Positions 18,209 to 50,300 of a DNA stretch of 64,000 bases are shown one piece after another. This DNA is from an uncultured Candidatus Micrarchaeota archaeon (lineage in GTDB: Archaea > Micrarchaeota > Micrarchaeia > Micrarchaeales > CABMGC01). The stretch covers positions 6,969 to 70,968 of the forward strand of contig CAVWDL010000005.1 in assembly GCA_963753785.1 (NCBI GenBank). The letters run 5' to 3'. Both the position numbers and the translations under genes were made by a program. Positions within the stretch are counted from its first letter, which is position 1; each line of letters opens with the position of its first letter. Under the pieces are notes generated by a model that was not told the origin of the DNA, did no database searches, and saw nothing but the letters and a program-made list of their open reading frames with translations.

Positions 18209-18214
18209 TCTTCC

Positions 18215-18299
18215 GAATGTGTCTACAACTTGCGACATCGCCAACACGAAGGACACCTCGTGCTCGCGGGCTTCCACAGCAAGGATCGAGTCAACAAGT
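18215..18299 (+). repeat. Degenerate copy of part of the AsnC-family gene (40183-40267)
   Basis: gaatgtgtctacaacttgcgacatcgccaacacgaaggacacctcgtgctcgcgggcttccacagcaaggatcgagtcaacaagt aligns by eye with gagtgcgtctacatgtgcgacatcgcgaacccgaagggcacccttgttctcgcgggcttccacaccaaggataaggccaacaagt. Confidence 0.85.
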
Positions 18300-18382
18300 C
18301 GACTGCGACGCAGAGGTATACCGAAGCAGCAAGGGAGGTTTATGATGATGTCGCCAGATAGTAAATAGATGACACGGGAATG

Positions 18383-21300
18383 TCAGCCACTGAAAGAGAC
18401 GGAAGGCATCACTCCATTAGGAGGGAATGTCCTTATCCTTACCCAGTGGATGTTTATCATCCCCCCGTTCGAGCTCCAGGTGATTCCTCCTATGGGATAC
18501 TGGGACGAAGGCAGCCCGGAGGTTATCGTCTCTGCCGTCCCGTAGTCGTAGCCGAACGAGGAGAATGAAGAAGAAGGCCAATAGGTCGAAAAGACATGGT
18601 TTGAGCCGCTCGGGTTTATGTTTCCTTGTGCGCTTCCAGTCATGTCTTCAAGCGTGCTTCCGGAGATGCCCCATCCTGCTGCGGGCCCTCCAGTTTCGAC
18701 GTAACCGAATTCCGTGTTTGTGAAACTCACTCCGGAACCTGTGATATTTCCATAGAAGTCAAGGACTTGCGAACCGTTCAGGCCGTAGTCGGCGTCTGTC
18801 CAGAAACGGTTGTTTGTTCCTGAAGTGAATGCAATAGATAGGCCGTCATTCACGGTGACGCTCCCAGAATGGGCATACCATCCGTCAGGGACGCCGGTTC
18901 CGGCGAAGTTCTGATAGAGAACAGGAAATATTGCGGGTCCGTTGTCGTATTGCCCGTAGGTCGACGATAGCTGCGGAGCCTCGCCCAGCCACACTCCGTC
19001 GTAATCAGCGCCGGATGCAAAGGTGACATTCAGAAGCAGGCTGCCATCGGCATCTATGCCTTGAGAGACGTTGATCCAAAACAACGCGTGAGTCGAAGAG
19101 GAACTGCAGTTGCTCTCACACCACGCATGGAATTCGGAGTTCCCAAAGTAGAATCTCAGGTTGCCGAGATCGCCCGTCGCGTTCTGGAACAGCGCGCTGG
19201 TCGCATCGATCACAATCATCTGCTGGAAATCAGTTCCAGTTCCCGTGCCTTGATTATTAGACAAAGTCATCGTGACGTTCGGGTACGCAGATGAAATGAT
19301 TGTGGTTGAGGAGGTACTCGTTATCGTCGTAGAGGTGGAAGTTGCCTCTATCGATGACGTTGCGGAGGTGGATGTCGTAGAGGTTGAAGTTGAGGTCGAT
19401 AGGGTGGAGGAGGTGGATGTGCTGGTTGATGTCGTCGTGCTTTCGGATTCGGAGTAGGTCATGCGCATATTTGCCCCCGAGTTCTCACCGCAATCGCCCC
19501 TCCAGGTTGGCTTCTGCCATGTCTGGAAGCTCACACTCGTATTGAAACATAGCCAGGTGGAACCTCCCGGACTCCTGTACGTCCTGAACGACCCGTAGTC
19601 GCTTCCCTGCAGGACAAGCCAGTAAACATTGCCCTCGCTTATCGCGACACTCTGCGGTATGTTCAGGTCGTTCCATCCGGTCTGCATCGCATGCGCCGTC
19701 GAGTTTCCAAGCCATGCTCCAGGAGTTCCCGATGAATCAGAGTATATTCCGACCTCAAGATCTGCCGCTGCAGTGGAAACGTTCACTCCGACGCTCTGCA
19801 GTGTCCCGGAGGAGGAAGCGGTAATTGGCCACAGAGCTTCCCAGGAATAGCTGTCGGTTCCGGTTCCCCGCCCGATATAGTCAGTGACTCCCGTACTGAC
19901 TGTGGTTGTTTGGGAGGTGGAGGTCGATGTGGATGTTGATGTCGTTGAGGATATGGTCGATGTAGTCGTGGAAGTTGTAGTTGTCGTCTGCTGTTCACAT
20001 CCGCTTCCATTGAAACAGGCAGACGGCATCACGCCATTAGGAGGTCTTGTCCTCATTCTTACGACGTAAGCATTGAAGCCGTTTCCAGGGGTAGACCAAA
20101 CATAGCCTCCAAGGTGCAAAGATGCCGTAGGAGGATCGGTAAGACTTTCGGCGTTTGAATAATCGTAATAGTAAACAGTAGACCCAGAGGCAGGATAATA
20201 TGTTGTGAAGACATGGTCCGCGTTCAGCGAAGCATACTTGGTTCCTTGGGTCTCCGAGGAGCTATCATCTGCCTGTATGGAGGTATACCCGCTGCCGCTT
20301 CCGCTTGAACCCCATCCCGCCGCATTTCTGTATGTTTCTCCTATGTATCCGAATTCTCCATTCGTGAACTGTCCTGCAGATGTTCCTTGACCTATCCAAT
20401 CCATAATTTGCGAACTATTCAATCCATAAGTCCCAGAGGTGTGGATATAGGTGGTGTCCCCGTTTGAATCAGCGTGGACACCGTTGTCTATCGTCATTGC
20501 CGAAGCGGTTATCGTCCATCCGCCCGGAGTCGAAGTGCCTTGGAAGTTTTGATATTCAAAGGGGAATGCGTTAGCGCCGTTGTCGTATTCTCCGTATGTT
20601 TCGGACAGCAGAGGCGACTCGCCTGCATACACATCATCATACTCGATTCCCTTGTTCAGGAATGTCATGTTTATAGTGAGGTTAGAGTCAGCAGGTATTC
20701 CTTCTGGGAGGCGCACCCAGAAGAGTGATGGGTTTTCCCTCCACGAGTAAAGTCCAGTCTGCCCCGAGAAGAAGCGGACGTTGCCGCCATCGGAAGACAT
20801 ATTTTGGAAGATCACAATATTCGGATCTATCCTGACCATTTGCTGGAAGCCCGCGCCCGTTGAAACGCTCTGGTTATTGTATAGAATGACAGTCACGTTC
20901 GGGTGATATAAGTCTACGCTTGTTGTACTAGATATTGCCCATGCGCCCGCAGAATCCTGCACCGCGTAGCAGAAGTATGTTGTGGAGTTTATCCGAAGGG
21001 AGAACGAGTCAGAAGCATTGGCATCGTAGTTTATGTCCTTCGTCCCTCCGTTTGATGCCCAGTTCCATGGTTCCTGGACATCAGTAGTGCAGTTGCGGTC
21101 TGTTCCGTAGAACCATACATAATGAAGGTAAGGAGAGGTTCCTTCGCTGACGTTTGCATACAAAGTGGCATTGCTTCCCTTTGCGACAACAGTGGCATTT
21201 GCTGTCGGAAGGCCTGCGACCATCTTCTGATTGACAGTGAATAGAGTGTGGTTCGTACCCGAACCCACATAGGAGTTGTCATCTGAATTATTCCACTCGT

Positions 21301-24268
21301 TGAGCGTAATGTTAAGAATATAAGTTCCCGGAGTCAGGTTCACAGAGATTGGAATCGTTACGGAAGACTTATTCCCGTGTTGATAGGCAAGATTTCTTGT
21401 GAGGACCAGCATTCCGTCCGATGCGTATACCGAAGCGTTCAAGTCGTAAGGGCTTGTCGCTTCGCTGCTGTTCACGATCCACGTTGCGGTGCCGCCCTGG
21501 TCCACGGAAGTGAGATTTCCGTATGCCGAGAGCGAGATGGGTACTGTCTTGAAGAGGACAACAGGGGAATAGGAGGAAGCGGCAGTATATGAGGAATTGG
21601 AAGCAGTTACCACAACGTTCACGACTTCAGGGAAGTTTTCGGACTCGTTCGCGTCTAGCGTAATGTTTTGTGTGTACGAAGGGGCATTCGTTGTGACGGT
21701 CACGGTATGAATCACGTCATCTGAGATTTCATTCACTACAGAGTAGGTGTAGGTGTACGGCGGCTTGGCCAGACCGTTGGTGGTGGTGTTTGCTATCACC
21801 ATCAATATCTGGGACCTCAATGCAGGCATTGCCGCTTGGACTTTCAAAGGAATTCCGAACATTACCTTCGGCATCACGGCATTCGGAGGGGTGTTCCTAA
21901 CCCGTATCCAGTGTATCGTGGCGGTGTTATTCAAAAAGGCAGGATAAGAGGTGGTGCAACCCCAACAGTGAGGATCCGAAGCCATGGCAAAGACATCGGT
22001 GCTGTTATGCAGTGATGTCGTATCGTTGAGAGGTGCACCGACTCCATAGGAAGTGTTATAGCCGGAATAGCCGTTCTGCAAGTAGAATCTGCCTCCATAA
22101 AGTGAAAAGCTCAGCGGAGGAAGGAAAGTATAATAGTGGTAGTTTTCGTTTATCGTAGAATCGAACACATGTTGCACTTCCGCGGTGCCGTTAAATGTAT
22201 AGAAGGAGGAAGAGCAACTGCTAATACTGCCAGAACTACAGTAATCAGGTCGCATTGCACCCAAGTCAAAGCCGAAACTTCCGGCACCAACGAATCCCCC
22301 ATGACCAGTAGGCCATGAGTCGGTTTGGTGGCAGTATATGTCATGACATATGCCTTGAGTATTAGGTTCCCATGGAACATCGACCGTCTTGTTTAGGTCA
22401 TGGTAGTTCGTTTGGTTTATTGTGAGATTTGAAAGGTATACCACAGAAGAGATGCCATCTCCGAGCTGCCCGAAGGTCAAGCCGTTGTCAACTCTCCATC
22501 CGGTGTTGTTGCTCCCGCTGCTAACTTGGGAATCAATAATGCCAATTCCGGATCCGGAGAGATTTCCTACGAAATTATCATAGGAATCAAAGACATGATT
22601 TCCGTTGTCGTATTCCGCGTACACAGAACTCAGATTAGGCGCCTCCCCTGTCGGGCCATTTGCGGACATCATGTTGTTTGGCATCACGTCCATGTAGATC
22701 ATGAGATTGCCAGATGCAGGTATGCTCTGGTTCAGCCTAACCCAGACCAGAGTGTGCGTAGAGGAGTTGGTGGCGTTGCTCTCGACCCAGGCCTGCAGGG
22801 GCACGCCAGTGGCGTTGGTGAACTCAACGTTGGTCCAGTTGGAGTTTATCGGATACTCAGTGCTGTTTACCGTGAGCAGCTGCTGGAAGGGAGGAGTGAT
22901 GGAAAAATGCTGGGTGTTGTTCAGAAGAATAGGCACTGAATGAGGAATTGCACGATATGCAGATAAGGTGACATTGGGCGTAGTAAAATTAATTTCATTG
23001 TAATTATAAGCTTCGGGTTCGGGATAGGGTGCACTATTAAGTAATCGGTTCAGGGTGTCATTCAAGGTGTTATTAAGTGAACAACTCAAAGTGCAGTTCA
23101 GTACACGATCCATTGCACAATTTAGCAATTTGGAATATGCAGTATTCAATAAGTGACTAAGTAGGTTCCTTGAGTTGCAATTCAACAAAGGATTAAGTGT
23201 ACGGTTCAATAAGCGATTCAAAGAGCCGCTATCGTCAGTAACGAAAACTGCAAGGATCATGTTGTGAGTGATAGGCAAGGTGATGGTCGAGCTGTAACGC
23301 GGAGAGGTTAGGTTAGTACGTGAGAAATCAAATCCCATCTCAGCCCACTGGTAGAGAAGATTATTAGAAGCAGTTCCACCATTTACCATTGCTTGAAAGG
23401 TGGCATTTTTACCAAAGATCAAAGAATGAGGAATTTTGATTTTAACGACGTTTAAATCTCCATAGGTTACCCAAAAACTAGTACCATCAGGGGTGATCGG
23501 GTCAGGATTTGCCGCATCTCCAGAAGTACCTGTTATGTTACGCCCAATAGAGTATGCAGTCAATATATAGCTATTGTTATAGAAAGCCAGAGATCTTGAA
23601 GAAGAATTGCCGTTGACAGTATATTGTACAGATAAGTTTTCGCTGTGTGTGAAGTCATGACCGAAACTCACATAGCTAAAGCGCGGTAAGGTAGTGTTGG
23701 ATTCAGTAGAACCCCAAAGATAATAGTTAGTCAGTGTAGGTCTTTCTTCTATGAATTCAGCAGTAGTGTTATCTGGAGAGAAAGACACTTCCTTTGGAGG
23801 ATTGCTCCAGTTCTGCGTTATATCTCGTATGTATAGAATCCATCGTCCGCTGGTTTTATTTAATGTTATTCTTGCATTGATGAGATCATTAGCATATACT
23901 GCTCCTGGTATTGGTAACTGTCGTTCTTTTCCACTGCTCGGTTTAGTGCAATTAGGTTCGCCAAAACATTCATACCATGCATTATAGCCCGGAATATCCC
24001 CAGAAGTGCCATAGGCGGTTCCGATTTGGATCAGATTGCTACCTCTACCTCCTATTCCAAGCCATTGTACGGATTGTCCGGTCTGAGAAGAAGAAGGCAC
24101 AATCCATGATGCATTTATTCCAGTTAAGCCTGATTGGGAAAACCCATATCCCGACCATATTGGATTAGGGAGATTGAATGCTGTCGTATCTGTTGTTGCA
24201 CTAATAGAATAACATAATGCAAAAATAGTAAAAATATAGAAAAAAATCGTTGCTTTTAACTTCTGCAT
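18383..24268 (-). CDS. Giant secreted protein A: G1 glutamic-peptidase-like domain, three DUF2341-like units, Ser/Thr linkers
   Basis: 1961 aa intact ORF with a signal peptide; WSGY, SWIVP, WLGIGG, LIQIGT, AWYE and AEFIEERP motifs of G1 peptidases; repeated FQQ...N(V/L)xF...WxE...WV...GEAPxLSxxYxxYDNG...R..PPNxVMP units. Confidence 0.8.
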   Translation of the reverse strand: MQKLKATIFFYIFTIFALCYSISATTDTTAFNLPNPIWSGYGFSQSGLTGINASWIVPSSSQTGQSVQWLGIGGRGSNLIQIGTAYGTSGDIPGYNAWYECFGEPNCTKPSSGKERQLPIPGAVYANDLINARITLNKTSGRWILYIRDITQNWSNPPKEVSFSPDNTTAEFIEERPTLTNYYLWGSTESNTTLPRFSYVSFGHDFTHSENLSVQYTVNGNSSSRSLAFYNNSYILTAYSIGRNITGTSGDAANPDPITPDGTSFWVTYGDLNVVKIKIPHSLIFGKNATFQAMVNGGTASNNLLYQWAEMGFDFSRTNLTSPRYSSTITLPITHNMILAVFVTDDSGSLNRLLNRTLNPLLNCNSRNLLSHLLNTAYSKLLNCAMDRVLNCTLSCSLNNTLNDTLNRLLNSAPYPEPEAYNYNEINFTTPNVTLSAYRAIPHSVPILLNNTQHFSITPPFQQLLTVNSTEYPINSNWTNVEFTNATGVPLQAWVESNATNSSTHTLVWVRLNQSIPASGNLMIYMDVMPNNMMSANGPTGEAPNLSSVYAEYDNGNHVFDSYDNFVGNLSGSGIGIIDSQVSSGSNNTGWRVDNGLTFGQLGDGISSVVYLSNLTINQTNYHDLNKTVDVPWEPNTQGICHDIYCHQTDSWPTGHGGFVGAGSFGFDLGAMRPDYCSSGSISSCSSSFYTFNGTAEVQHVFDSTINENYHYYTFLPPLSFSLYGGRFYLQNGYSGYNTSYGVGAPLNDTTSLHNSTDVFAMASDPHCWGCTTSYPAFLNNTATIHWIRVRNTPPNAVMPKVMFGIPLKVQAAMPALRSQILMVIANTTTNGLAKPPYTYTYSVVNEISDDVIHTVTVTTNAPSYTQNITLDANESENFPEVVNVVVTASNSSYTAASSYSPVVLFKTVPISLSAYGNLTSVDQGGTATWIVNSSEATSPYDLNASVYASDGMLVLTRNLAYQHGNKSSVTIPISVNLTPGTYILNITLNEWNNSDDNSYVGSGTNHTLFTVNQKMVAGLPTANATVVAKGSNATLYANVSEGTSPYLHYVWFYGTDRNCTTDVQEPWNWASNGGTKDINYDANASDSFSLRINSTTYFCYAVQDSAGAWAISSTTSVDLYHPNVTVILYNNQSVSTGAGFQQMVRIDPNIVIFQNMSSDGGNVRFFSGQTGLYSWRENPSLFWVRLPEGIPADSNLTINMTFLNKGIEYDDVYAGESPLLSETYGEYDNGANAFPFEYQNFQGTSTPGGWTITASAMTIDNGVHADSNGDTTYIHTSGTYGLNSSQIMDWIGQGTSAGQFTNGEFGYIGETYRNAAGWGSSGSGSGYTSIQADDSSSETQGTKYASLNADHVFTTYYPASGSTVYYYDYSNAESLTDPPTASLHLGGYVWSTPGNGFNAYVVRMRTRPPNGVMPSACFNGSGCEQQTTTTTSTTTSTISSTTSTSTSTSTSQTTTVSTGVTDYIGRGTGTDSYSWEALWPITASSSGTLQSVGVNVSTAAADLEVGIYSDSSGTPGAWLGNSTAHAMQTGWNDLNIPQSVAISEGNVYWLVLQGSDYGSFRTYRSPGGSTWLCFNTSVSFQTWQKPTWRGDCGENSGANMRMTYSESESTTTSTSTSTSSTLSTSTSTSTTSTSATSSIEATSTSTTITSTSSTTIISSAYPNVTMTLSNNQGTGTGTDFQQMIVIDATSALFQNATGDLGNLRFYFGNSEFHAWCESNCSSSSTHALFWINVSQGIDADGSLLLNVTFASGADYDGVWLGEAPQLSSTYGQYDNGPAIFPVLYQNFAGTGVPDGWYAHSGSVTVNDGLSIAFTSGTNNRFWTDADYGLNGSQVLDFYGNITGSGVSFTNTEFGYVETGGPAAGWGISGSTLEDMTGSAQGNINPSGSNHVFSTYWPSSSFSSFGYDYGTAETITSGLPSSQYPIGGITWSSNGGMINIHWVRIRTFPPNGVMPSVSFSG

Positions 24269-24423
24269 GAACTCATTAAAAAGATGAATATTAAAAAGGT
24301 TCTCATTTTAGAAGAAACTACGACTTTATGTTGCCTCTTTTCCAAGTATATTATCTGAGGATAAATATATCCACGATACGTCTTGAGGAAAGAGTTATTA
24401 ATTTACCTCCCATATTCTGAAAT

Positions 24424-24921
24424 ATGGAGTTTAAGTTTAAGATTGCAGGCATAGTTGTAGTTGTTTTTTTAGTTCTGTTGTTTTTAGGAATATTAGGGGA
24501 AACAACTCAGGGCCCGAATGCCCTTCAACTCCCTATATGTGTTACAGCATACAACTTCACTTGCGTAAACTTAGTTTTCCAGAACGCGACGGCAAATTTG
24601 ACGATGAACGTAGGGCATAAGTCTCAATATTGGTCGAGTTGGGCTTTGGCATACGTGCCACAAGGTGCAAGCAAAATAAACGGAGTGCCTGATGTTCCTT
24701 TCATTCTGCAGAAAGATGGTTTTAATATAGGAGAAAATAGACAGATTCAGCTAAGTTCTTCGATGAGTGCTCCAGTCAAAATAGGAACGTTCATTGCTGG
24801 AGAAATTTGGGTTTGTTATTCAATAAATGAAACGATCAGCAGTACAGGGAAAGGATATTGTCAGGGAAGCAATACCATCAAATATGAAAAGATTGCGACT
24901 ATAGCAGTAAGGGCAAGTTAA
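24424..24921 (+). CDS. Small pilin-like exported protein (module A)
   Basis: N-terminal hydrophobic helix, CVTAYNFTC, WVCY...C...IATI, homologous to ORFs 31353 and 49547. Confidence 0.7.
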   Translation: MEFKFKIAGIVVVVFLVLLFLGILGETTQGPNALQLPICVTAYNFTCVNLVFQNATANLTMNVGHKSQYWSSWALAYVPQGASKINGVPDVPFILQKDGFNIGENRQIQLSSSMSAPVKIGTFIAGEIWVCYSINETISSTGKGYCQGSNTIKYEKIATIAVRAS

Positions 24922-24929
24922 TATCTCTG

Positions 24930-25043
24930 TGTCTGCTCCTTGATGTAGAGCATTAGCTCGGGTTTCTCCTAGGTATCAGGTTCGCTCTTATACTGTAGAC
25001 CGCATTTATTCCATTTCCCGAATGAAGTAGCGCCCCTGTGCAA
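24930..25043 (-). repeat. Decayed copy of the dnaG 3' end plus junction sequence shared with 32394-32417
   Basis: tgtctgctccttgatgtagagcattagctcgggtttctcctaggtatcaggttcgctcttatactgtagaccgcatttattcc matches about 40625-40710; followed by gaatgaagtagcgcccctgtgcaa versus gaacgaagtagcgctcctgtgcaa. Confidence 0.85.
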
Positions 25044-28000
25044 GGCAGATCAGATGCGGCAAACGCTTTTTGTGAGGGTTAGCCGAGCTATAGCAACAGA
25101 GGGGATGAAAATATTATCCACTGAAAGAGAAAGAAGGCATAACCCCGTATGGAGGATATGCCCTTATCCTTACCCAGTGGATGTTTATCGTTCCCCCGTT
25201 CGAACTCCAGGTGATTCCTCCGATTGGATACTTGGAAGAGGGCAGCCCTGTGGTGAGCGTCTCCATCGTCCCGTAGTCGTAATCAAACGAGGAAGATGAC
25301 GAGGACGGCCAATATGTCGAGAATACGTGGTTCAGGCCGCTCGGGTTGACGTTTCCTTGGGTGCCTCCTGTCATGTCTTCAAGCGTGCTTCCCGAGATTC
25401 CCCATCCGGCGGCGGGTTCGCCTGTTTTGACGTAACCGAATTCGGTGTTGGTGAATCCAACTCCCGAACCCGAGATGTTCCCGTAGAAGTCAAGTGCCTG
25501 CGAACCGTTCAGGCCGTAGTCGGCGTCTGTCCAGAAACGGTTGTTTGTCCCTGAAGTGAACGAGATAGCCAACCCGTCATTTACTGCGACGCTTCCGGAA
25601 TAGGCGGTCCATCCTGAAGGAGAATTGGTTCCGGCGAAGTTCTGATAGAGTACGGGAAATACTGCGGGTCCGTTGTCGTATTGCCCGTAGGTCGAGGATA
25701 GCTGCGGAGCCTCACCCAACCACACTCCGTCGTAATCGGCACCGGATGCGAAGGTCACGTTAAGAATCAGGCTGCCATCTGCACCTATGCCCGGAGAGAC
25801 GTTGAGCCAGAACAGCGCGTGAATCGAAGAGGAACTGCAGTTGCTCTCGCACCATGCATGGAGTTCGGAATTTCCTATATAAAACCTCAGGTTGCCGAGG
25901 TCGCCCGTCGCGTTCTGGAATAGTGCGTCGGTCGCATCGATCACGATCATCTGCTGGAAATCGGTTCCGGTTCCCGTGCCTTGGTTATTGGACAGGGTCA
26001 TTGTGACGTTCGGATACACAGATGAAATGATTGTAGTCGAGGAAGTACTCGTTATCGTCGTCGAGGTTGAAGTTGACCCGATCGATGACGTTGCAAAGGT
26101 GGATGTCGTAGAGGTTGAAGTCGAGGTAGATAGAGTGGTGGAGGTCGATGTGCTGGTCGATGTCGTCGTGCTTTCCGATTCGGAGTAGGTCATGCGCAGG
26201 TTAGCTCCGGAGTTCTCGCCGCAATCGCCGCTCCACGTCGGCTTCTGCCACGTCTGGAAGCCAACTCCAGGATTGAAACATAATGAAGCGGAACCTCCAG
26301 GACTCCTGTATGTCCTGAAAGACTCGTAGTCGCTTCCCTGCACGGCAAGCCAGTAAACATCGCCCTCGCTTATCGTGACGCTCTGCGGTATGTTCAGGTC
26401 GTTCCATCCTGTCTGCATCGCATGCGCAGTCGAGTTTCCAAGCCACGTCCCGGGAGTTCCCGATGAATCGGAGTATATTCCGACCTCCATATCTCCCGCT
26501 GAAGTGGAAACGTTCACTCCGACGCTCTGCAGCGTCCCGGAGGAGGAAGCGGTAATTGGCCAGAGGGCCTCCCAGGAGTAGCTGTCTGTTCCGGTTCCAA
26601 GTCCGATATAGTCGGTGATTCCAGTACGGATAGTGGTTGTCTGAGAGGTAGTGGTCGAGGTGGAGGTCGATGTCGTCGATGAGGTGGTTGAAGTGGTCAG
26701 GGTGCCTTCAGAGTTAAAGAAGACCGAAGGCATGACGTCGTTAGGAGAATGGACTCTCAGTCTTACCCAATATATGCGTATAGTGCCTCCGTTCGAACTC
26801 CAGGTGATTCCTCCAATGGGATACTCGGAAGACGGAAGACCTGTGGCAAGAGTTTCTCCGGATCCGTAATCGTAGCTGAACGAGGATGAAGAGGAGGAAG
26901 GCCAGTAGGTCGAGAAGGTGTGGTTTGAACTTCCAGGGTTGGCACTCCCCTGAGTGCTGCTGGTCATATCTTCAAGCGTGCTTCCCGAGATTCCCCATCC
27001 GGCGGCAGGTTCGCCTGTTTTGACGTAGCCGAATTCGGTGTTGGTGAAACCAACTCCCGAACCCGAGATGCTTCCATAAAAATCAAGGATTTGAGAACTG
27101 TTAAGGCCGTAGTCCGAGTCCGTCCAGAACCTGTTGTTAGTTCCTGAAGTGAAGGAAATGGTCAGGCCATTGTCGATGGTGGCGCTTCCCGAATAGGCGA
27201 TCCATCCGGCAGGGGTCCCAGTCCCTGTGAAGTTCTGGTATAGGGCAGGGAACATCATGGCACCGTTGTCGTATCTTCCGTAAGTGCTCGACAGTTGCGG
27301 AGCCTCGCCCGCATAGGCTTCGTCGAACTCCGTGCCTTTAGGCAAGAAAGTCATGTTTACTCCCATAGTGGAGCCGGGTCCAATTTCACCTGGCAGCCTT
27401 ATCCAGAAGAGGGTTGCATTTTCTCTCCAAGAGTAGAGTTCAGTATCCCCCGAGAAGAAGCGGACGTTGCCTCCGTCATAGGACAGGTTCTGGAAGATCG
27501 GGTCTGTTGAGTTTATCCTGACCATTTGCTGGAAGTCCGCAGCAGTGGGAACAGTCTGGTTGTTGTATATGATGAGAGTCACGTTCGGATGGTACAGGTC
27601 CACGCTTGTCGTGTTGGATATCGCCCACGTGCCAGTGGAATCCTGCACTGCATAACAGGCATAGGTCGTGGAATTTATTCGAATAGAGAATGAATCGGAA
27701 GCATTGGCATCGTAGTTTATGTCCTTCGTCCCTCCATTTGTTGTCCAGTTCCACGGTTCCTGAACGTCAGTAGTGCAGTTGCGGTCGCTACCGTAGAACC
27801 ATACATAGTGAAGGTAAGGAGAAGTTCCTCCGCTGACGTTTGCATATAAGGTGACATTGCTTCCTTTAGTGACAACAGTGGCGTTTGCGGTAGGAAGACC
27901 TGCGACCATCTTCGGATTGACGGTGAAAAGGGTGCTGTTCATACCCGAACCCACGTAAGTTTCATCTTCGGAGCTATTCCACTCGTTGAGCGTAACGTTA

Positions 28001-30748: not shown

Positions 30749-31352
30749 GTCAGGACCGAATTCAGCATGGCCAAAGTCAGACATCGAGTCACAATCATAT
30801 CTCGCCCCGATTAAAGGGATAGTCACATAACAATGTTGAGGAAACTCCTCGACAAATTCGAAGGATTGATTATTCGGAGTATAATCCACAGTAGTCTCAC
30901 TAGGGTGAGTCCAGGGGTGGGTTAAGTCAGTAATGCTCAAGTTCCACGTGTTTTGACTTATTCTTTTTATCTCTGCTTTCATTTTGTCATTTGCTTCAAC
31001 TACTTGATTCAAAGATTCTGCATTTTGAAAAGGAAGAAAAGTACACTGATACTGTCCAGTACATTCTAACCACGCAGAATAATTAGAGTTGATATAGCGC
31101 GTACCTATCTGAATTAAATTACTTTCCAAATTTCCTCCAATTCCGACCCATTGTGCAGAGGCTCCATTACCTGACTGAGCAGGAACAACCCAAGAAGCAG
31201 TCACGTCAGTCACATTAGGTAAATCTATTTCATAACCTGACCAGAAAGGATGGTAATCGAAAGTAGTCTTCGAGTTTACGGAAATGAAAAGAGAGAATAA
31301 TATTAACAAGGAAATTAAGATTCCGCCATATGAGAGTTTCAATTGCATTGAC

Positions 31353-37636: not shown

Positions 37637-37672
37637 GTCCGTGACTACTACGTTGAAGTTTAAATATTGCAG

Positions 37673-38248: not shown

Positions 38249-38326
38249 TACCTGCCAAGAAATAAATCAGTGTATGCCCAGCGGGGGCACGTTTAATAAT
38301 CCACTTTGAGAGTATCATCGGAGTAC

Positions 38327-39271: not shown

Positions 39272-39336
39272 GCCAGCGAGAAGCAATAAGAATATTCCTT
39301 TCTCATAATATAGATAACAAGCCGGGGGGATTGTTT

Positions 39337-40594: not shown

Positions 40595-40613
40595 TGCATG
40601 CAGACTGGAGCTT

Positions 40614-42126
40614 TCACTCCAGCTTGCCCTGCTCCTTGGTGTAGAGAATCAGCTCGGGGTGCCTCCTGGGCATCGGGTTCGCCCTTATGCCGTAGACCGC
40701 CTTTATCCCCTTCTCTAGGGATATCTCGACCAGCCTCTGGGTTATCACGCCGTCGAGGACTATCGCGTATGCGCCCTTGGTGTCCTGCAGGAAGTTGAGG
40801 AGCTCGCGTATCGCGACCTCCTTTATCACGCTTCCGTCAGGCGCATAGACCCTGCTCCTGAGCGTTCCCGAAAGCTCCACGAGGCCGTTCGCGAGCTGCC
40901 CAAGCAGCGCGCTCTCGAGTATCGGCTTTGTGACCGCTCCCGATTCCCTCGGCGCCTCCCTCTGCAGCGGCACTGACTCGATCCTTCGGATCTCGGTGCG
41001 CTCCTGCTGCTCGCTAGAGTTGCTCCTCAGGTCCTTGATGTAGGGCTTTTCGGACGAATCCTCGAAAGATTCACGTACACCGCTCGTCTGCTGCTGGGGC
41101 GCCTGCTGAGGCTGCGGCTGCTGGTCCCTGTCCCTCTGGTATGGGGAAGGCTGCTGGTCCCTCGGGGACTGATCCCTGGCGAACTGCTGTCCGCCCTGGT
41201 AGGACGGCTGCTGCTCCCTCTGCTGGGAGGAGTTGTTCCTCCTCTCGCTGCGGTCGGTGTGCACGCCTCCCTGGTGGATGTGCCTGTTCTTGTCGAGACC
41301 GAGGTACTGGTCGACTGGGATTCTTGTCCTCAGTCGCCTTGATTACCTCTTTTCTCGTCAGCTCCTCGACCTCCTTTCCGTCGGGCGCCTTCGCCACGAA
41401 GTCGATCTCCGCGACGTTGAGAAGCGACCTTATCACCATGTCTCCGCCCCGATCCCCGTCAACGAAGACGGTGACCTCCTTCTCGTTGGCGAGGTTTATG
41501 ATGCTCTTCGGTATGTTGGAAGTCGCACCCCCAATCGCTATCGCGTTGTTGATGTCGTTCCTTAGAAGGGTTATCACGTCGGCCCTTCCCTCTACCATTA
41601 TGACCTCGTTGCTCTTTCCGACCTCTGGTCCCGCCGGAAGCTGCTCCGGCCCGTAGGTCGAGATCTCGCTTATCTTGACCTCGCTCTGCACTAGCTCCGC
41701 GAGCTCCTTGCTGTCGGGGATCTCCGTCGAGAGCAGCTGGCTGAGCAGCGTCTTCGCCCTGTCGAGTATCTTCCTCCTCTTCTCCGCCCTTGTGTCCTCG
41801 ACCTTCTCGATCTGGAACTGGGCCTCGAAAGGTCCGACCCTGTCGACCGCCTCCACGGCGGCTCCGAGGATGCAGGTCTCGACCCTGTCAAGCGACGCCG
41901 GCAGGAAGAGCTTTCCGAATGTCTTGCTCCCTCCCTGCTGGACCTCTATCTCGATCCTCCCGATCTTTCCGTTCTTCTGCAGTTCACGAAGGTCCAGGTC
42001 GTCCCCCAGAAGCCCCTCGGTCTGCCCGAAGACGGCGCCGATTATGTCCGGCTTGTCCACCAGTCCGTCTATGCTGAACTTCGCCAGCACCATGTACTTC
42101 ACAATGTCCAAATACGTTTTTGCCAT
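40614..42126 (-). CDS. dnaG: Archaeal DnaG-type primase/exosome-associated protein with Gln-rich linker (one frameshift near 41330)
   Basis: VDKPDIIGAVFGQTEGLLG, TOPRIM VEGRADV...DGDRGG, and C-terminal DGVITQRLV. Confidence 0.95.
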
Positions 42127-42127
42127 A

Positions 42128-42505
42128 TCAACCACTCTTCTTTAGGGCCTCGTCTATCGGCCCTTTTATCTGCTCCACGCTGGTCGCGTTGAGCATCTTG
42201 AGAATCCGCCTGCCCAGAACCTCGTCGATGACGTATCCCTCGCCAAACTCGAGTATCCTGGCCTTCAGCTTCTCGCCCTTCTCCGCACCTCCCCTGTCGT
42301 TGTCCATCAGGAGGTACACCTTCCTTTGGCTGCAGCCCAAGGTTTGCTCCGAGACCTTTGAGAAAGGTATCGATTGCACGCCGAAATAGGCGAGCGCACG
42401 CACGTCGTGGGGGCCTTCGACGACCACCGTCCCCTGCCTAAGCTCGTCCAAGATACCTGTTATCGCCCTTCCCCTAGCGCCGTCCTTGCTGTGCTGCAAC
42501 TTCAT
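42128..42505 (-). CDS. Small TOPRIM-domain protein
   Basis: VVVEGPHDVRAL and LLMDNDRGG motifs; upstream of dnaG. Confidence 0.85.
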   Translation of the reverse strand: MKLQHSKDGARGRAITGILDELRQGTVVVEGPHDVRALAYFGVQSIPFSKVSEQTLGCSQRKVYLLMDNDRGGAEKGEKLKARILEFGEGYVIDEVLGRRILKMLNATSVEQIKGPIDEALKKSG

Positions 42506-43092: not shown

Positions 43093-43162
43093 TCAGTGCC
43101 CTCGTTTCTGAAGAAAGGGTTATAAATTCTCGAACTCTCTATTAGCGCGGGAGGCGACCAGG

Positions 43163-43585
43163 TTGACGGGATACGACAAAGGTGCCAGGAGCGAGAGGGA
43201 GCTGCTCAACATACTCTACGAGAGGGGCTACTCGGTCACCAGGAGCGCCGGATCCGGTGTGAACGCCCTGAGCCCCGACCTTGTCGCGATGAGGAAGAGG
43301 GAGTGCCTTGTGATCGAATGCAAGGCATGGGAGAAGGGGAGCCTCGCGATAGGCCCCGAGCAGTTCGAGAAGATGCTCGAGTGGGAGGAGAAGACCCAGT
43401 TCCCAGTCTTCGTCGCATGGCGCATGAACGGGATGGGCTGGTTCTTCATAAAGCTCGACGAGTTCGATAAGGGAAAGAGCAACCACAACATAACGAGGAA
43501 GAAGGCGCTCGCGCTCAACCGGAAGCTTGACGACGTATGCGGCAAAGCTGCCGTTGCGGTTGCAACCACGGCAGAGCAAAAGTGA
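43163..43585 (+). CDS. hjc: Holliday junction resolvase Hjc
   Basis: KGARSERELL...GYSVTRSAGSG...PDLVA...IECK signature. Confidence 0.93.
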   Translation: MTGYDKGARSERELLNILYERGYSVTRSAGSGVNALSPDLVAMRKRECLVIECKAWEKGSLAIGPEQFEKMLEWEEKTQFPVFVAWRMNGMGWFFIKLDEFDKGKSNHNITRKKALALNRKLDDVCGKAAVAVATTAEQK

Positions 43586-43657
43586 TTGAGAGGGACAATC
43601 GATTCCACTCGTAATCCCTACTATTCGGTCTTGACGCTGCGAATGTGCGCATCCGAG

Positions 43658-43872
43658 ATTGCTCATTATAATGAGCAATAATCCAGTTTTTTGATCAACA
43701 TAATGAGCAAGTCTGAATTACCTAAAGGCTGAGGTTCTGGTTTTATGTCACGGTAATCATCATAGTTGATGACTTGTGTGACATAAATCTCACAAATAGA
43801 ACAAAAGGGATGCGAATGCGCACTTGCATATCTTAATGAGCATACTTTGAAGTTTGCTACATAATAAGCAGT
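43658..43872. repeat. Array of palindromic TTGCTCATTATAATGAGCAA-like motifs plus a long hairpin
   Basis: Perfect 22 bp palindrome at 43658-43679; degenerate copies near 43691, 43824 and 43854; inverted repeat TTATGTCAC...GTGACATAA at about 43743-43786. Confidence 0.75.
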
Positions 43873-43902
43873 TTAGATTCTCATTATCGAATGAACTCAA
43901 CG

Positions 43903-46900
43903 TCATCCACTGAAAGAGAAAGAAGGCATAACCCCGTATGGAGGATATGCCCTTATCCTTACCCAGTGGATGTTCATCGTTCCTCCATTAGAACTCCAAG
44001 TTATTCCTCCGACAGGATACTGGGATGATGGCAGTCCGGTGGTGAGCGTCTCCATCGTCCCGTAGTCGTAATCAAAAGAGGAAGAGGAGGAGGACGGCCA
44101 ATAGGTCGAGAAAATGTGGTTCAGGCCGCTCGGGTTGACGTTTCCTTGGGTGCCTCCTGTCATGTCTTCAAGAGTGCTTCCGGAAATGCCCCATCCGGCG
44201 GCGGGACCTCCGGTTTCGACGTAGCCGAATTCGGTGTTTGTGAAACCCACTCCGGAACCTGTGATGTTCCCGTAGAAGTCAAGTACCTGCGAACCGTTCA
44301 GGCCGTAATCGGCGTCTGTCCAGAAACGGTTGTTTGTCCCTGAAGTGAATGCAATCGATAACCCGTCATTTACGGCGACGCTTCCTGAATAGGCGGTCCA
44401 TCCGGAAGGAGCGTCGGTTCCGGCGAAGTTCTGATATAGGACAGGAAATACTGTAGGCCCGTTATCATGTTGCCCGTAGGTCGAAGATAGCTGCGGAGCC
44501 TCGCCCAGCCACACTCCGTCGTAATCGTCACCGGACGCGAAGGTCACGTTCAGAGGCAGGCTGCCATCTGCACCTATGCCCGGAGAGACGTTGAGCCAGA
44601 ACATCACATGAGTCGAAGAGGAAGTGCAGTTGCTCTCGCACCATGCATGGAGTTCGGAATTTCCTATATAAAACCTCAGGTTGCCGAGGTCGCCCGTCGC
44701 GTTCTGGAACAGGAAATCTGTCGCATTAATCACGACCATCTGCTGGAAATCTGTTCCTGTTCCAGTGCCTTGGTTATTGGACAGAGTTATCGTTACGTTC
44801 GGATACACAGATGAAATGATTGTAGTCGAGGAAGTACTCGTTATCGTCGTCGAGGTTGAAGTTGACCCGATCGATGACGTTGCAAAGGTGGATGTCGTAG
44901 AGGTTGAAGTCGAGGTAGATAGAGTGGTGGAGGTCGATGTGCTGGTCGATGTCGTCGTGCTTTCCGATTCGGAGTAGGTCATGCGCAGGTTAGCTCCGGA
45001 GTTCTCGCCGCAATCGCCGCTCCACGTCGGCTTCTGCCACGTCTGGAAGCCAACTCCAGGATTGAAACATAATGAAGCGGAACCTCCAGGACTCCTGTAT
45101 GTCCTGAAAGACTCGTAGTCGCTTCCCTGCACGGCAAGCCAGTAAACATCGCCCTCGCTTATCGTGACGCTCTGCGGTATGTTCAGGTCGTTCCATCCTG
45201 TCTGCATCGCATGCGCAGTCGAGTTTCCAAGCCACGTCCCGGGAGTTCCAGATGAATCTGAGTATATTCCGACCTCCAGATCTCCCGCCGCGGTGGACAC
45301 GTTCACTCCGACGCTCTGCAGCGTCCCGAAGGAGGAAGCGGTAATTGGCCAGAGGGCCTCCCAGGAGTAGCTGTCTGTTCCGGTTCCAAGTCCGATATAG
45401 TCGGTGATTCCCACACTGACGGTGGTTGTCTGAGAGGTGGAGGTCGAGGTGGAGGTCGATGTCGTCGACGATGTGGTTGAAGTGGTCAGAGTGCCTTCAG
45501 AGTTAAAGAAGACTGAAGGCATGACGCCGTTAGGAGGATGGACTCTCAATCTAACCCAATATATGCGTATTGTGCCTCCGTTCGAGCTCCAGGTTATTCC
45601 TCCGATGGGATACTTGGAAGACGGAAGCCCTGTGTTGAGAGTCTCTCCGGATCCGTAATCGTAGCTGAACGATGATGAAGAAGAGGAAGGCCAGTATGTA
45701 GAGAAGGTATGATTTGAACTTCCGGGGTTGGCACTCCCCTGGGTGCTGCCAGTCATGTCTTCAAGCGTGCTTCCCGAGATTCCCCATCCGGCGGCGGGAC
45801 CTCCGGTTTCGACGTAGCCGAATTCGGTGTTTGTGAAACCAACACCCGGAACCTGTGATGTTCCCGTAGAAGTCAAGTACCTGCGAACTGTTCAGGCCGT
45901 AATCGGCGTCTGTCCAGAAACGGTTGTTTGTCCCTGAAGTGAATGCAATCGATAACCCATCATTTACGGCGACGCTTCCCGAATAGGCGGTCCATCCAGA
46001 GGGTGTGTCTGTTCCTGTGAAGTTCTGGTATAGGGCAGGGAACATCAGTGCACCATTGTCGTATCTTCCGTAAGTGCTCGACAGTTGCGGAGCTTCGCCC
46101 GCATAGGCTCCGTCGAACTCCGTGCCTTTAGGCAAGAAAGTCATGTTCACTTCCATAATGGAGCCAGATCCCATCTCACCCGGCAGCCTTATCCAGAAGA
46201 GGGTTGCATTTTCTCTCCAAGAGTAGAGTTCAGTATCCCCCGAGAAGAAACGGACGTTGCCTCCGTCGTAGGATAGGTTCTGGAAGATAGGATCTGTGGA
46301 GTTTATCCTGACCATTTGCTGGAATTCCGCAGCGGTAGGAACGCTCTGGTTGTTGTATATAGTTAAAGTCACGTTCGGATGGTACACGTCCACGCTTGTC
46401 GTGTTGGATAGGGCCCATGCACCTGTGGAATCCTGCACTGCATAACAGGCATAGGTCGTGGAATTTATTCGAATAGAGAATGAATCTGAAGCGTTGGCAT
46501 CATAGTTAATGTCCTTGGTTCCTCCGTTCGATGTCCAGTTCCACGGCTCCTGAAGGTCGGTAGTGCAGTTGCGGTCTGTCCCGTAGAACCATACATAGTG
46601 AAGGTAAGGAGAGGCTCCTCCGCTGACGTTGGCATACAAGGTGACATTGCTTCCCTTAGTGACAACAGTGGCGTTTGCGTTCGGAAGGCCTGCGACCATC
46701 TTCGGATTGACAGTGAAGAGGGTGCTGTTAGTGCCAGAACCGATGTATGAGCTGTCGATCGCACTCATCCATCCGTTGAGAGTGACGTTCAACTCATATG
46801 TCCCTGGCGTAAGATTTGCAGGGATAGGGATGTTTATGGAAGACTGCGCATGCTGGTAGGTAAGATTTCTCGTTAAGACAAGGAGCCCGTTTGACGAGTA

Positions 46901-49542
46901 TACTGAAGCATTGATGTCATACGGGCCTGTGATTCCAGTGCTGTTTGTCATCCAGGTGCCAATTCCTCCTTGGTCTACTGAATTCGTATTTCCATATGCC
47001 GAAAGTGAGGCGTTTACTGTCTTGAAAAAGAAGAGCGGAGCAGAATATGACGAAGAAGTCGTATCAGGATCTGAATCAGTCACGACCACGTTCACAACCT
47101 CTGGGAAGTTCGCAAGGTCATTAGCACCTATCGTGAAGTTCTGCACACAAGAGGTTGCATTTGTTATTACGGTCGCCGTCTGTATGGTCTCTTTTGACAG
47201 CGAATTGACAACGGAGAAGAAATATGTGTAGGGCGGTACTGCGAAATCAGTGGTAGCAATTCTTGCTGTAACCGCTACAGAATTGGATCTTTCTATAGGC
47301 CCTGAATATGTTTCTGTCGATTTTTCCAAGAAATGACCGAAGGTTGTCACGTTCGGCATGACTCCGTTTGGTGGCGTGTTTCTCGTTCGTATCCAAGAAA
47401 GAGACACAGGAGTAGGATTGTTCCAACGATCCCAACCGCCAGTAAGAGTGAATGCTTCATCTCCTGTTATTTCAGACACATTCTCCATTTGGGTGGTCAC
47501 TAGAGAGTCGACACGGTTACCGGGGTGTTTTGTCCTGCTTTGTATTAGGACTTTGCCATTATATAATGCGAAACTAACTGGAGAGGTCAAGGTATCTGAG
47601 GTGTTGGATACGGTAGACACTCCATTGATTGTAGTGAAAAAATATTCAGGATAGGGACTGTTTTCATCAGCTCTTAGCACTCCAACTCCATAAGTACAGT
47701 TAGGTTGCATCCATCCCATAAACCCGTCGTAGTATCTGCAAGTAGTATTGCCGCTTAAAAGAGTCCATCCCTCGTAACCTGTCGGAGTAAGAACACATAT
47801 TCCCCATGAACAAATCGAATATCCTTCGGGAAGGTAAAACGTATCCACCGCAATATTAGTATTTTCATATGTCGCAGGAGTTAGGTTTGCATTCTGGAAT
47901 CTTACGCTGCCTGTGAAAGTTAGTCCGTTGTCAACAGTCCAGTTTGAACCAGCCAAACCGAATATTTGTTGATCTATAATCGAGTTATTTCTCAAAAAGT
48001 CGTCATAATGGTCGAAGACATATCTCCCATTGTCATACTCCGCATATTCGGGGCTTAGTGTCGGAGCTTCCCCGGTAGGGCCATTGGCGGACATCACATT
48101 ATAAGGCAGTATATTCATGAATATCAGAATGTTGCTGTTTCCGGAGATGGTTTGGTTCAGTTTGACCCATACCACTGTATGCGCTGACGAATTAGTGGCA
48201 TTGCTCTCAACCCATGCCTGAAGAGGCTCTCCTGCTGCATCAGTGAAGTCAACGTTGGTCCAGTTGGAGTTTATCATGGGGAACCTCCTGCTGTTGATAT
48301 CGAGCACCTGCTGGAAACCAATAGGAGTGGCATACTGCTGAGTGTTAGTAAGAGTTATAGGCACGGAATATGGATCTATGCGTTCCATAGTAACAGGTGA
48401 CGGTTCTATCTCATCCTTTTGTCCGCCAGACTTAAGATTAAAGTCACCTACAAGGGTCCAGTTATAGGCTTGCGGTTTGGGATCCGTTGAGGAATTGTCA
48501 GTGACAAATACGGCAAGAATTTTAGGACCTGTAATCATAGTTTTAAATTCTGAATTATTACTTCTTAGTGGAGTTAACACTTGCGATAATGAAAAATCAC
48601 GATTCACGTAGGCCCATTGGTAAAGAAGTTTGTGGTTGGAGTTGCCGGGCACAATCGCTTCAAAGGTTGCGTTTTTGCCAAGAATTTTTGGAGTCAGATT
48701 AGATATGTTTGCAACACGCAAATCTCCATAAGTCACCCAGAAACTCGAGCCATCGGGGGTAATTGGATCAGGGTTTGCAAGAGTTGCACCTGGCACCGAG
48801 AAACCATCACTTCCAGGTATTTGTATTGAAATATTGCTTTGTAGCGTATAAGCATAGGAAGAAACTGAACTATTCTTATAAAATTCTTCGAATGACTTGA
48901 AATCAGAATTGCTTTGTTTCGCAGATAAAACTCTTGAGTTTGTGAAATCAGGACCAAAAGCAGAATATGCAAATTTTGACAGGGAGGCACACTCATAACC
49001 AAAAAGACATGATGCCTTGAGCAATTCATCTATAACTTCAAAAGATTGATTATTCGGGTTGTAACTCACATTAGTTTCATTAACCCAGTGCTGTGTCGTA
49101 TCGTTTATGCTCATTAACCAGATACCTGGGTGTACTGTAGAATTACTCATTAACTTTATCTCTGCTTTTATTATATCATTAGCTCTTACTGTCTGACTCA
49201 AAGCTATTCCACTTTCGGGATAAGGGATAAAGCTACATTGGTATTCTTGAGTACATTCATACCATGCGGAATATTGGGAATTGAGATAGCTCGTACCTAT
49301 CTGAATTAAATTGTGTCCAAGGTCTCCGCCGATTCCTATCCATTGTGCGGAAGTTCCGCTGCCTGACTGAGCAGGAACAATCCAAGAAGCACTCACACCA
49401 ATCAAGTTTGATGAGCTTATTTCATAACCCGACCAGATAGGGTGATAAAAAGACATTTGTTCTGCTTTTAAAGAAATCAGAAACAAGAAAAAACTAATAA
49501 AAAGAGTATTTTTCCACTATTTAAAAGTTTCAATAACATCAT
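43903..49542 (-). CDS. Giant secreted protein C (paralog of A and B), with single-base frameshifts near 49490 and 45846
   Basis: ORFs 45761-49486 and 43903-45876 join by removing one C. ATG at 49542 gives a signal peptide that joins the main ORF by adding one base to the A6 run at 49488-49493. Confidence 0.8.
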
Positions 49543-49546
49543 CAAA

Positions 49547-50080
49547 TTAGCTTGCTTTTGCCTCAAGCGTAGCAATCTCCACGTAATTCATAATAGCACT
49601 CGAATTACCTTGCGGCACACAGACGCCGGTTCCACCTATTATTTTTGTCACTCCCTTACTTTTTGTGTAACAAATCCAAAGACTTCCGAAAGTGAAAGTT
49701 CCTAATGTGGTTCCTGATTTAGATACTGACAATATACCAGAAGGTATTCCTGCCTTCTGTCCTGAGTAAAGGGTTGGTGAGGATGACGCTGCTGAGAATT
49801 TTATCATAGGTGTTCCTGTAGTTGCGTTAGTCACATTCGGAGCGTAACCTATCGCCCAACCCACCCAAGTTTGCCCTGTGTTCTGCCCTATAGTCACAGT
49901 CAAATTTCCCGTATGCTCTGAATAGTTAAGTCCATTACAGTAGAAACCTTGATTTGCAGTACAACTAGTCCCTAGTACTCCTGGCACAGAGAATAAACTA
50001 AGGCTAAAGATAATACACAGCACAATAATTGCTAAAACCGCAATTAAGACTATTTTAATGCCTTTCTTAATTTCTTTCAT
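49547..50080 (-). CDS. Small pilin-like exported protein (module C)
   Basis: TM helix, CTANQGFYC...TGNLTVTIGQNTGQTW; close paralog of 31353-31880. Confidence 0.75.
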   Translation of the reverse strand: MKEIKKGIKIVLIAVLAIIVLCIIFSLSLFSVPGVLGTSCTANQGFYCNGLNYSEHTGNLTVTIGQNTGQTWVGWAIGYAPNVTNATTGTPMIKFSAASSSPTLYSGQKAGIPSGILSVSKSGTTLGTFTFGSLWICYTKSKGVTKIIGGTGVCVPQGNSSAIMNYVEIATLEAKAS

Positions 50081-50224
50081 TCTTATTCTGCTAAGAAGCC
50101 AAACTTTAAATCACTTTCTCCGAATTTCAGATAATTTTTGTTCAGCAGGTCAGTTTTCTGTAATCAGCACGAGCCGCGCTGAAGCACGGCGAACGGAGTG
50201 AGACTGCGATCCGCAGCGAGGTAG

Positions 50225-50300
50225 ATCTGTGCACGCTCGGCTCGCCCATCACAACTACCAACCGACAGGGGCTGGAGTTTTCACTCCAGCTTGCCTCTGC
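50225..50300 (-). repeat. Flank shared with 32235-32310, ending in a short copy of the dnaG stop region
   Basis: ctgtgcacgctcggctcgcccatcacaactaccaaccgacaggggctggagttttcactccagcttgcc versus ctgtgcacgcccagctcgctcatcacactaccaaccgacaggggctggagctttcactccagcttgcc. Confidence 0.9.

Follow-up and report, generated by a model that had tools for sequence, protein, structure and literature searches.

Why should three surface-protein modules of a Candidatus Micrarchaeota archaeon each end in a short copy of the 3' end of dnaG? The question is raised by a stretch of 64,000 nucleotides (hereafter the window) that corresponds to C5:6969-70968, a part of contig C5 of a 1.02-Mb, 12-contig metagenome-assembled genome (MAG) of this DPANN lineage. 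The genome, whose completeness is 73%, was designated G000 in the comparisons of loci and relatives; coordinates without a contig name refer to the window. Three collinear paralogous modules, A (18379-25043), B (25044-32417) and C (43899-50301), were recognised by open reading frame (ORF) listing, self-BLAST and Pfam, and each is composed of a pilin-like gene and a giant gene coding for G1-peptidase and DUF2341 domains, capped by a copy of the dnaG 3' end. The original prediction regarded this unit as a cassette that once sat at, or targets, the dnaG stop region and that has been copied repeatedly to build a repertoire of variable surface proteins; as a whole, it is partly supported. The dnaG scraps are probably passive fossils of one old junction, copied along with a duplicating module family that was later reshaped by gene conversion. 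The common junctions, the insertion status with respect to other genomes and the mosaic identity of the copies are the direct observations from which this reading starts.

In modules B and C the order is giant gene, pilin-like gene and dnaG remnant, as had been predicted for all three; module A departs from it, its pilin-like gene being on the opposite strand and its tail lacking the first 24 nt, that is, the hairpin part. The tails themselves were found by BLASTN and self-BLAST where they had been predicted, all in the orientation of native dnaG (minus strand), and the predicted module borders were correct within a few bases. Native dnaG is located at 40605-42135 on the minus strand (the gene runs from 40614, and a stem-loop covers the stop codon at 40605-40622). 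Tail B (32281-32399, minus strand) matches it best, with 93.6% identity over 109 nt between 32281-32389 and 40605-40712 (E 4e-41), and the match to the dnaG genes of relatives extends to 32399. The values are 82% over 84 nt (E 1e-16) for tail A (24933-25015) and 93% over 30 nt (E 2e-5) for tail C (50272-50301), which consists of the stem-loop part only and abuts the stop codon of a gene coding for a 196-aa membrane protein (50301-50891). BLASTN of all 12 contigs did not reveal further dnaG-tail copies.

The borders of these tails are more informative than their presence. In B and C the dnaG homology starts exactly 9 nt after the dnaG stop codon, and it is preceded on the module side by a common flank of 47 nt (minus strand; 32234-32280 in B and 50224-50271 in C, where flank and tail together span 50224-50301), the first half of which is also present in the copy on contig C9. 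Flank plus tail are 91% identical between B and C over 78 nt (E 4e-23, the 47-nt flank included). At the other end, tails A and B have an identical dnaG breakpoint, and they differ from native dnaG by the same two 1-nt insertions and the same CCT variant. Beyond the breakpoint, both run into the last 7 nt of the seryl-tRNA synthetase (SerRS) gene, GAAGTAG, followed by 15-16 nt of the spacer upstream of aRF1. In A, the dnaG tail, the GAAGTAG copy and 15 nt of this spacer together occupy 24933-25043 (minus strand); in B, the GAAGTAG copy and the aRF1 upstream spacer are located at 32398-32478 (plus strand) and represent the old SerRS-aRF1 spacer. Comparison with the relatives' dnaG shows an overlap of about 2 nt between the parts derived from dnaG and from SerRS at tail B, which points to illegitimate joining. 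GAAGTAG was also considered as a target-site duplication, an idea that was dropped because a duplication junction better accommodates the additional 15 nt common to A and B as well as the 2-nt overlap. Since A and B share the dnaG breakpoint, and B and C the module-side junction, all three tails descend from one junction.

Where this junction came from can be read from the opposite side of module A. Its left flank is a fragment of an HTH regulator gene (18214-18340, plus strand), a copy of 40182-40309 within the HTH gene at 39337-40470 (plus strand), which converges on native dnaG. The fragment begins 5 nt after the SerRS stop codon; its segment 18214-18299 is 81.6% identical to 40182-40267 over 87 nt (BLASTN), and it is recognised at the protein level as residues 387-429 (TBLASTN, E 3e-6). 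Copies of the sequences on either side of the native HTH/dnaG junction therefore flank module A, arranged and oriented as at the native locus and diverged to about the same extent (81.6% and 82% identity), in agreement with the predicted former position of the unit beside the dnaG stop region. Tails A and B carry the GTC codon of native dnaG, which is ATC or ATA in nine of nine aligned relatives, and the 9 nt that follow the stop codon are common to the native site and the tails and occur in none of these nine relatives. Both lineage-specific features indicate that the source of the tails was this lineage itself. A further trait of the junction is the stem-loop GCUGGAGU GAAA GCUCCAGC, whose loop contains the dnaG stop codon, present at 40605-40622, 32281-32298 and 50272-50289. 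This CTGGAG-N6-CTCCAG structure is found at the native site and in tails B and C only, and its 3' arm is absent from the nine aligned relatives. It may be a preferred break point or a functional element.

The comparison with relatives establishes the insertion status of the modules. The closest dnaG loci are all from Candidatus Micrarchaeota MAGs. In 11 same-genus loci the genes coding for SerRS, aRF1, GT4, in some cases M1 peptidase, PLD, in some cases VIT1, and HTH follow one another in this order, and after HTH the opposite strand carries dnaG, a small Toprim gene, hjc and three membrane-protein genes. The window retains the same order in its housekeeping block (32479-40470; aRF1, GT4, M1 aminopeptidase, PLD-like, VIT1 and HTH by Pfam). 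The left border of the A+B insertion is the SerRS gene (16856-18208, plus strand; Pfam Seryl_tRNA_N and tRNA-synt_2b), and that of the C insertion is the Holliday junction resolvase gene hjc (43163-43585, plus strand; Pfam Hjc, E 1e-20). The gap between SerRS and aRF1 is 27-60 nt in the relatives and 14,270 nt here, while the gap between hjc and the 196-aa gene ranges from -31 to 3842 nt in 34 loci and reaches 6,715 nt here. On account of these enlarged gaps, the modules are lineage-specific insertions. Native dnaG carries no module, as had been predicted, and adjoins the housekeeping block.

The relatives did not bear out the expectation that a module would be found downstream of an intact dnaG. 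Among 80 Micrarchaeota loci, including 61 with 2 kb or more of sequence beyond dnaG, there is none in which a pilin-like or G1-domain gene follows dnaG, and the 11 same-genus dnaG loci are likewise devoid of a module at dnaG; in two Micrarchaeota loci an unrelated protein with DUF2341 is encoded at distances of 3.7 and 7.3 kb. When tail B was used as a probe against 117 other genomes of the family (a tally that includes the unpublished genome G054), only the dnaG end of each genome was recovered, and never the module flank. Local alignment detected no module remnant in the present 143-nt HTH-dnaG spacer. In the relatives this spacer varies from 13 to 6488 nt (20 loci), the hjc spacer is variable as well, and the variable spacers contain PIN/MazE-like pairs, HD-domain and HTH genes, AbiEii, rotamase and Fic/DOC genes (for instance, L015 16039-16727, L017 3095-4965, L024 14856-16411 and L035 3339-5958). 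The convergent spacers at HTH/dnaG and hjc are hot spots where accessory DNA settles.

That the unit has been copied repeatedly, as the original prediction stated, is supported beyond the window. TBLASTN revealed four more modules, a tandem array of three on contig C8 and a single one, accompanied by additional pilin-like genes, on contig C9, so that the family comprises at least seven copies in this genome, all looking like complete units. Neither a dnaG tail nor the stem-loop accompanies the C8 and C9 modules. Searches for the G1 domain of giant A detected it in none of 12 other same-genus genomes and in nine of 248 genomes of the order, this genome included. Within this genome there are 8-9 G1-domain matches, and the best foreign ones do not exceed 37% identity.

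The copies, including the four on other contigs, are mosaics, a property that the original prediction did not contain. Surrounding sequence is 70-90% identical between copies when identity is computed by windows, and it is interrupted by exact tracts whose identity may have been inflated by polishing. The longest one, of 2257 nt, extends over 45973-48229 of giant C (minus strand) and equals C8:28500-30756 in a letter-by-letter check. Another, of 992 nt (26702-27693 of giant B, minus strand), equals C9 28828-29474 plus 30144-30488, where a copy of an insertion sequence (IS) splits the C9 side, and a third, of 455 nt (26006-26460 of giant B, minus strand), equals 44795-45249 of giant C. The 100 nt adjacent to the exact tracts show only 76-92% identity. 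Window tables also indicate that the nearest paralogue changes along the giant genes. Module A is itself a chimera, similar to the third C8 module in its 5' third (pilin-like proteins 48% and G1 regions 51-54% identical) and to B, C and the C9 copy in its 3' part. Exact tracts with sharp borders fit the signature of recent gene conversion, which would have acted both within the contig and between loci. On their common junction relics and mosaic likeness, the modules can be classified as a paralogous family that appears to derive from duplication accompanied by gene conversion.

We infer the order of events and the recombination mechanism as follows. An ancestral module would have occupied the variable spacer where the HTH and dnaG genes converge, beginning 9 nt past the dnaG stop codon. 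A segment comprising part of HTH, the module and roughly the last 110 nt of dnaG would then have been duplicated and joined by microhomology to the SerRS stop region, which would produce the junction between tail and GAAGTAG. The simplest route would be a tandem duplication from the SerRS end to the dnaG tail, after which the redundant copy of the housekeeping genes was lost except for the HTH fragment; alternatively, an HTH'-module-dnaG' segment could equally have been inserted with a short target duplication. Tandem duplication of the module with its tail and 22 nt of spacer would have given rise to A and B, and a B-like copy retaining only the 30-nt stem-loop part of the tail would have been pasted into the hjc/membrane-protein spacer as C. 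The module at the original dnaG site would have been lost. Gene conversion among the copies and IS200 hits on three of them would have come later.

Several points weigh against passive fossils of one duplicated junction. In the relatives examined dnaG is never accompanied by a module, which leaves the two flank fossils as the only record of the ancestral position; loss of the module from the native site is required, and the route of C to its present site is not explained. The tail piece kept in C is exactly the stem-loop, which possibly reflects function or preferred breakage rather than a random border. Tail B is 93.6% and tail A 82% identical to native dnaG, though both are expected to be equally old; this gap needs later gene conversion or chance, and with about 7 versus 15 differences it is not significant. 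Finally, the assembly is metagenomic, unverified and indel-prone, and no read spanning any junction was seen in the public sequencing runs, which gave only short, low-depth contigs. Among the contigs listed for these runs, none bridges a tail junction and none shows an empty site or a circle, a result that weighs neither for nor against the junctions.

A site-specific mobile cassette, in which a recombinase encoded elsewhere recognises the stem-loop at the dnaG stop and the tails are copies of the attachment site, would also account for part of these data: all tails have the same orientation, the module-side ends of B and C are identical, the stem-loop is confined to the native site and to tails B and C, the GAAGTAG found at the SerRS end and after tails A and B resembles a target duplication, and the genome codes for four tyrosine recombinases, two of them on the module contig. 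However, native dnaG has no module and is separated from tail B by conserved housekeeping DNA; A and B share the whole junction, including the 15 nt past GAAGTAG, as duplication predicts; tail A has lost the stem-loop and the C8 and C9 copies are tailless; no common motif was seen at the A+B and C insertion sites; and the two recombinases of the module contig are surrounded by unrelated ORFans, no closer than 33 kb to module C. Together with the 80 unoccupied dnaG loci, this makes a cassette targeting dnaG quite unlikely, and this part of the original prediction is not sustained. Two of the outcomes that it had itself named as contrary evidence were found: no examined relative with a module at dnaG, and descent of the modules from one ancestral locus. 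Import of an HTH'-module-dnaG' segment from a close strain, with illegitimate insertion next to SerRS into a genome whose own dnaG never had a module, agrees with the divergence of the flank fossils (about 18%, similar to the same-genus distance, with identities of 78-88%), with the low G+C content of the module 5' parts and with the match of tail B to the relatives' dnaG, which continues 10 nt further than that to native dnaG. The tails and native dnaG have the GTC codon and the 9 nt downstream of the stop codon in common, both found in none of nine aligned relatives; this argues against it, as does the confinement of the G1-domain gene to this genome among those sampled from the genus, and we consider such an import unlikely.

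The tails might instead have been kept for a function, the stem-loop at the dnaG stop acting as a terminator, insulator or stability element (an RNA or DNA signal). The structure folds more favourably than shuffled controls, with z scores of -4.5 at the native site and -3.9 in tail B (0 of 200 shuffles as good), tail C retains just this structure, and the 91% likeness of flank plus tail between B and C drops to about 70-76% in the next kilobase. Yet the stem-loop was lost from tail A and is absent from the C8 and C9 modules, its z score in tail C is only -2.1, no T run follows it (as judged by eye), and the high B/C likeness is equally explained by a recent conversion tract. An Rfam search of the window detected only a tRNA-Leu at 16759-16844, and no family matches the stem-loop. 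Retention for function is accordingly rather improbable. Very improbable is an assembly artefact, by which the repeats and exact tracts would derive from chimeric or over-polished contigs of a metagenome bin. The indel errors, the completeness of only 73% and the homogenising effect that polishing could have on exact tracts would favour it; but the sequence that contains the tails and junctions is unique, the modules differ by 15-30%, which is too much for a collapse, and both insertions lie between genes that are adjacent in relatives, so the flanks are consistent. Public reads speak in the same sense. Four soil or sediment runs from a single study contain parts of the window, and in one of them, run X1, 47 of 65 pieces are at least 99% alike to the window and there is depth in all 30 bins of 30. 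The sequence of one X1 contig, from a paralogue, diverges from that of the window precisely where the 2257-nt tract has its border, at 45973.

The genes of the modules can be described as follows. Giant gene A (18383-24268, minus strand) is open as assembled and codes for 1961 aa with a signal peptide, a G1 peptidase domain and DUF2341 repeats; pilin-like gene A (24424-24921, plus strand; 165 aa) is divergent from it. Module B begins with a 3' flank (25044-25109, minus strand) that is weakly common to the C9 copy, followed by giant gene B (25114-31405, minus strand), which is assembled in three pieces (25114-29814, 29771-30286 and 30746-31405), broken by an IS element and by one further frame change at about 29771-29814, and by pilin-like gene B (31353-31880, minus strand; 175 aa). 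Giant gene C (43903-49486, minus strand) is in two frames as assembled, 43903-45876 and 45761-49486, and is accompanied by pilin-like gene C (49547-50080, minus strand; 177 aa). Giants B and C also contain an internal direct repeat with a period of 1593 nt (about 531 aa), 68-80% alike, at 25128-27355 and 43917-46145, and domain blocks have therefore been duplicated inside the giant genes too. The module 5' parts (pilin-like gene plus G1 domain) have 38-44% G+C, compared with 55-57% in the surrounding genes; the low-G+C stretches are 18000-25000, 29000-32000 and 47000-50000. This reflects either a composition bias of Asn/Ser/Thr-rich proteins or a foreign origin.

The giant proteins match Pfam DUF2341 (E 4e-10 to 1e-8). 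The N-terminal piece of giant B matches Peptidase_A4 (G1) with 41.2 bits (cut-off 22.3) and the C9 paralogue with 55.2 bits, and giants A and C have no direct Peptidase_A4 match in Pfam at E 0.01. A profile built from eight N-terminal domains matches aspergillopepsin II (1y43_B, E 0.001). Q81 (in LIQIGT) and E175 (in FIEE) are invariant in the eight sequences and align with ILQTGV and WIVED of 1y43_B; this Gln plus Glu is presumably the catalytic pair of G1 peptidases, and is predicted as such for the giants. The giant is a secreted protein, most likely of the cell surface or of host contact.

The small proteins of the modules have 165-177 aa, one N-terminal hydrophobic helix and four conserved cysteines. 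Pfam scans assign them to no family, and they start with MKKGIKIVLI..., without the QSAMEYLMTYGWAIL motif, which we take to be the archaeal pilin N-terminus. This motif is present in two paralogues encoded on contig C7 and in nine of ten retrieved members of the wider family, which comprises 936 representatives at E up to 0.001 in a profile search. The 177-aa protein of module C is 36% identical over its full length to a C7 paralogue (E 5e-23); a word-based protein search with it recovered only itself, the 175-aa protein of module B and one JGI protein (55%). On these likenesses the small proteins can be regarded as putative divergent pilins, and the label pilin-like is fair. The predicted character of the modules as variable surface proteins of a DPANN archaeon is thus supported by the Pfam domains, the paralogue comparison and the Micrarchaeota dnaG neighbours.

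A bolder interpretation is that the family forms a system for varying host contact driven by gene conversion, in which intact and broken copies, both arrayed and dispersed, act as a reservoir, kilobase tracts are shuffled among them, and hairpin gene ends, the stem-loop at the dnaG stop among them, serve as preferred break and join points that seed copies into the spacers of convergent genes. We put it forward tentatively, as a possibility of low probability. Surface-gene families shaped by duplication and gene conversion are known, such as the Neisseria pilE/pilS and Borrelia vlsE cassettes. The present family resembles these and the merozoite surface antigens of Plasmodium in having both clustered and dispersed copies, mosaic tracts with sharp borders and some disrupted copies. 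It differs from systems of the pilE/pilS and vlsE type in that the modules are complete two-gene units with their own start, and in being from a DPANN archaeon. Unlike in programmed antigenic-variation cassettes, a single expression site with promoterless donors was not seen here.

Integrative elements may carry the 3' end of their target gene, as in islands at tRNA genes or gene ends and in archaeal integration of the SSV and pNOB8 types. The modules share with such elements the direct 3'-end repeats in gene orientation beside accessory DNA, but they have no integrase, the native gene is not adjacent, the repeats bracket housekeeping genes, the junctions are common to the copies and no occupied site is present in relatives. 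The truncated HTH, dnaG and SerRS-stop copies at the edges, the junction microhomology and the tandem A/B arrangement are as in segmental duplications, from which the locus differs in that the source-site copy is gone and C, equally oriented, is a dispersed copy at a distance of about 11 kb. No new kind of mobile element is revealed. What the locus offers is a clean, datable example of a genome-reduced symbiotic archaeon building a surface-protein repertoire: a family not found in the 12 other genomes sampled from the genus reaches at least seven copies here, in spacers whose content also varies among relatives, and its members apparently continue to exchange tracts of kilobase size. Such exchange, if real and frequent, would provide DPANN archaea with a route to vary host attachment; none of the papers found in the literature searches appeared, from title and opening of the abstract, to describe it. 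The fossils in the flanks (dnaG tail, HTH fragment and SerRS stop) make the order of rearrangements reconstructable, which is rare in MAGs.

The prediction that the window contains no integrase was correct, as matches to PF00589 lie only outside it, but it overlooked an IS200/IS605-type element inside module B (30077-30752, minus strand; 676 nt), which carries a Y1 transposase gene alone, tnpA (30123-30578; PF01797, E 2.4e-25). The element has six copies in the genome, 99.4-100% identical over 671-689 nt, with subterminal hairpins at both ends; the others are at C5:85884-86559, C6:55685-56361, C8:31813-32490, C8:108733-109410 and C9:29473-30148. It agrees with the IS200/IS605 family in its Y1 transposase, its subterminal hairpins and its near-identical copies; here it is a passenger that disrupts modules, and its hairpins are unlike the dnaG stem-loop. 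Three of the six copies are inside giant surface-protein genes, at different places. A link of the element to the dnaG stem-loop was considered and discarded, given the dissimilar hairpins and the different insertion places. The Pfam content of the module ORFs is limited to DUF2341, Peptidase_A4 and Y1_Tnp, without any recombinase; the modules have no terminal repeats, and only one weak inverted repeat was found. A search of the genome for PF00239 serine recombinases and PF07282 TnpB gave no match. It yielded four tyrosine recombinases, all outside the window. Two are encoded in an ORFan-rich stretch, C5:84000-100000 (L131, 6082-6684 and 10620-11501), which also contains an IS200 copy and may be an integrated element, with no link to the modules seen.

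The indel-prone assembly affects how individual genes are read. As assembled, native dnaG has one surplus base near 41319 (41300-41340), while the dnaG frame is open at 422-563 aa in 28 of 30 relatives, the remaining two frames (335 and 287 aa) corresponding to a contig end or a partial match. The SerRS gene requires two frame changes. A short-read contig of run X1 has one extra A behind 49487, in a homopolymer, which restores the start of giant C with its signal peptide. Since the assembly is prone to such errors, the pseudogenes suggested by frameshifts in giant C (near 45860) and giant B (near 29800) are not to be trusted, and apparent pseudogenes in the window may be assembly errors; the IS insertion in giant B is structural, unlike these frameshifts. 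A metagenome scan with the pilin-like pair gave a single weak match (30% identity) and no closer strain.

Other observations concern the surroundings of module C. A 178-aa ORF on the minus strand (43142-43678) was rejected as a gene because it is an antisense shadow of hjc. The spacer between hjc and giant C (43586-43898) contains four or five ATAATGAGCA-like motifs, one of them a perfect palindrome, and a second long palindrome; genome-wide, the motif is local and not enriched near other modules. In three relatives' loci (L049, L062 and L065) a pilin-like homologue is located just upstream of a conserved cluster of genes coding for membrane proteins of 233, 416 and 196 aa. The same cluster neighbours module C here, and this hints that it is a surface-structure locus. 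Finally, the contig ends C3:2-585 and C4:10112-10695 overlap with 99.3% identity over 585 nt and are probably joinable.

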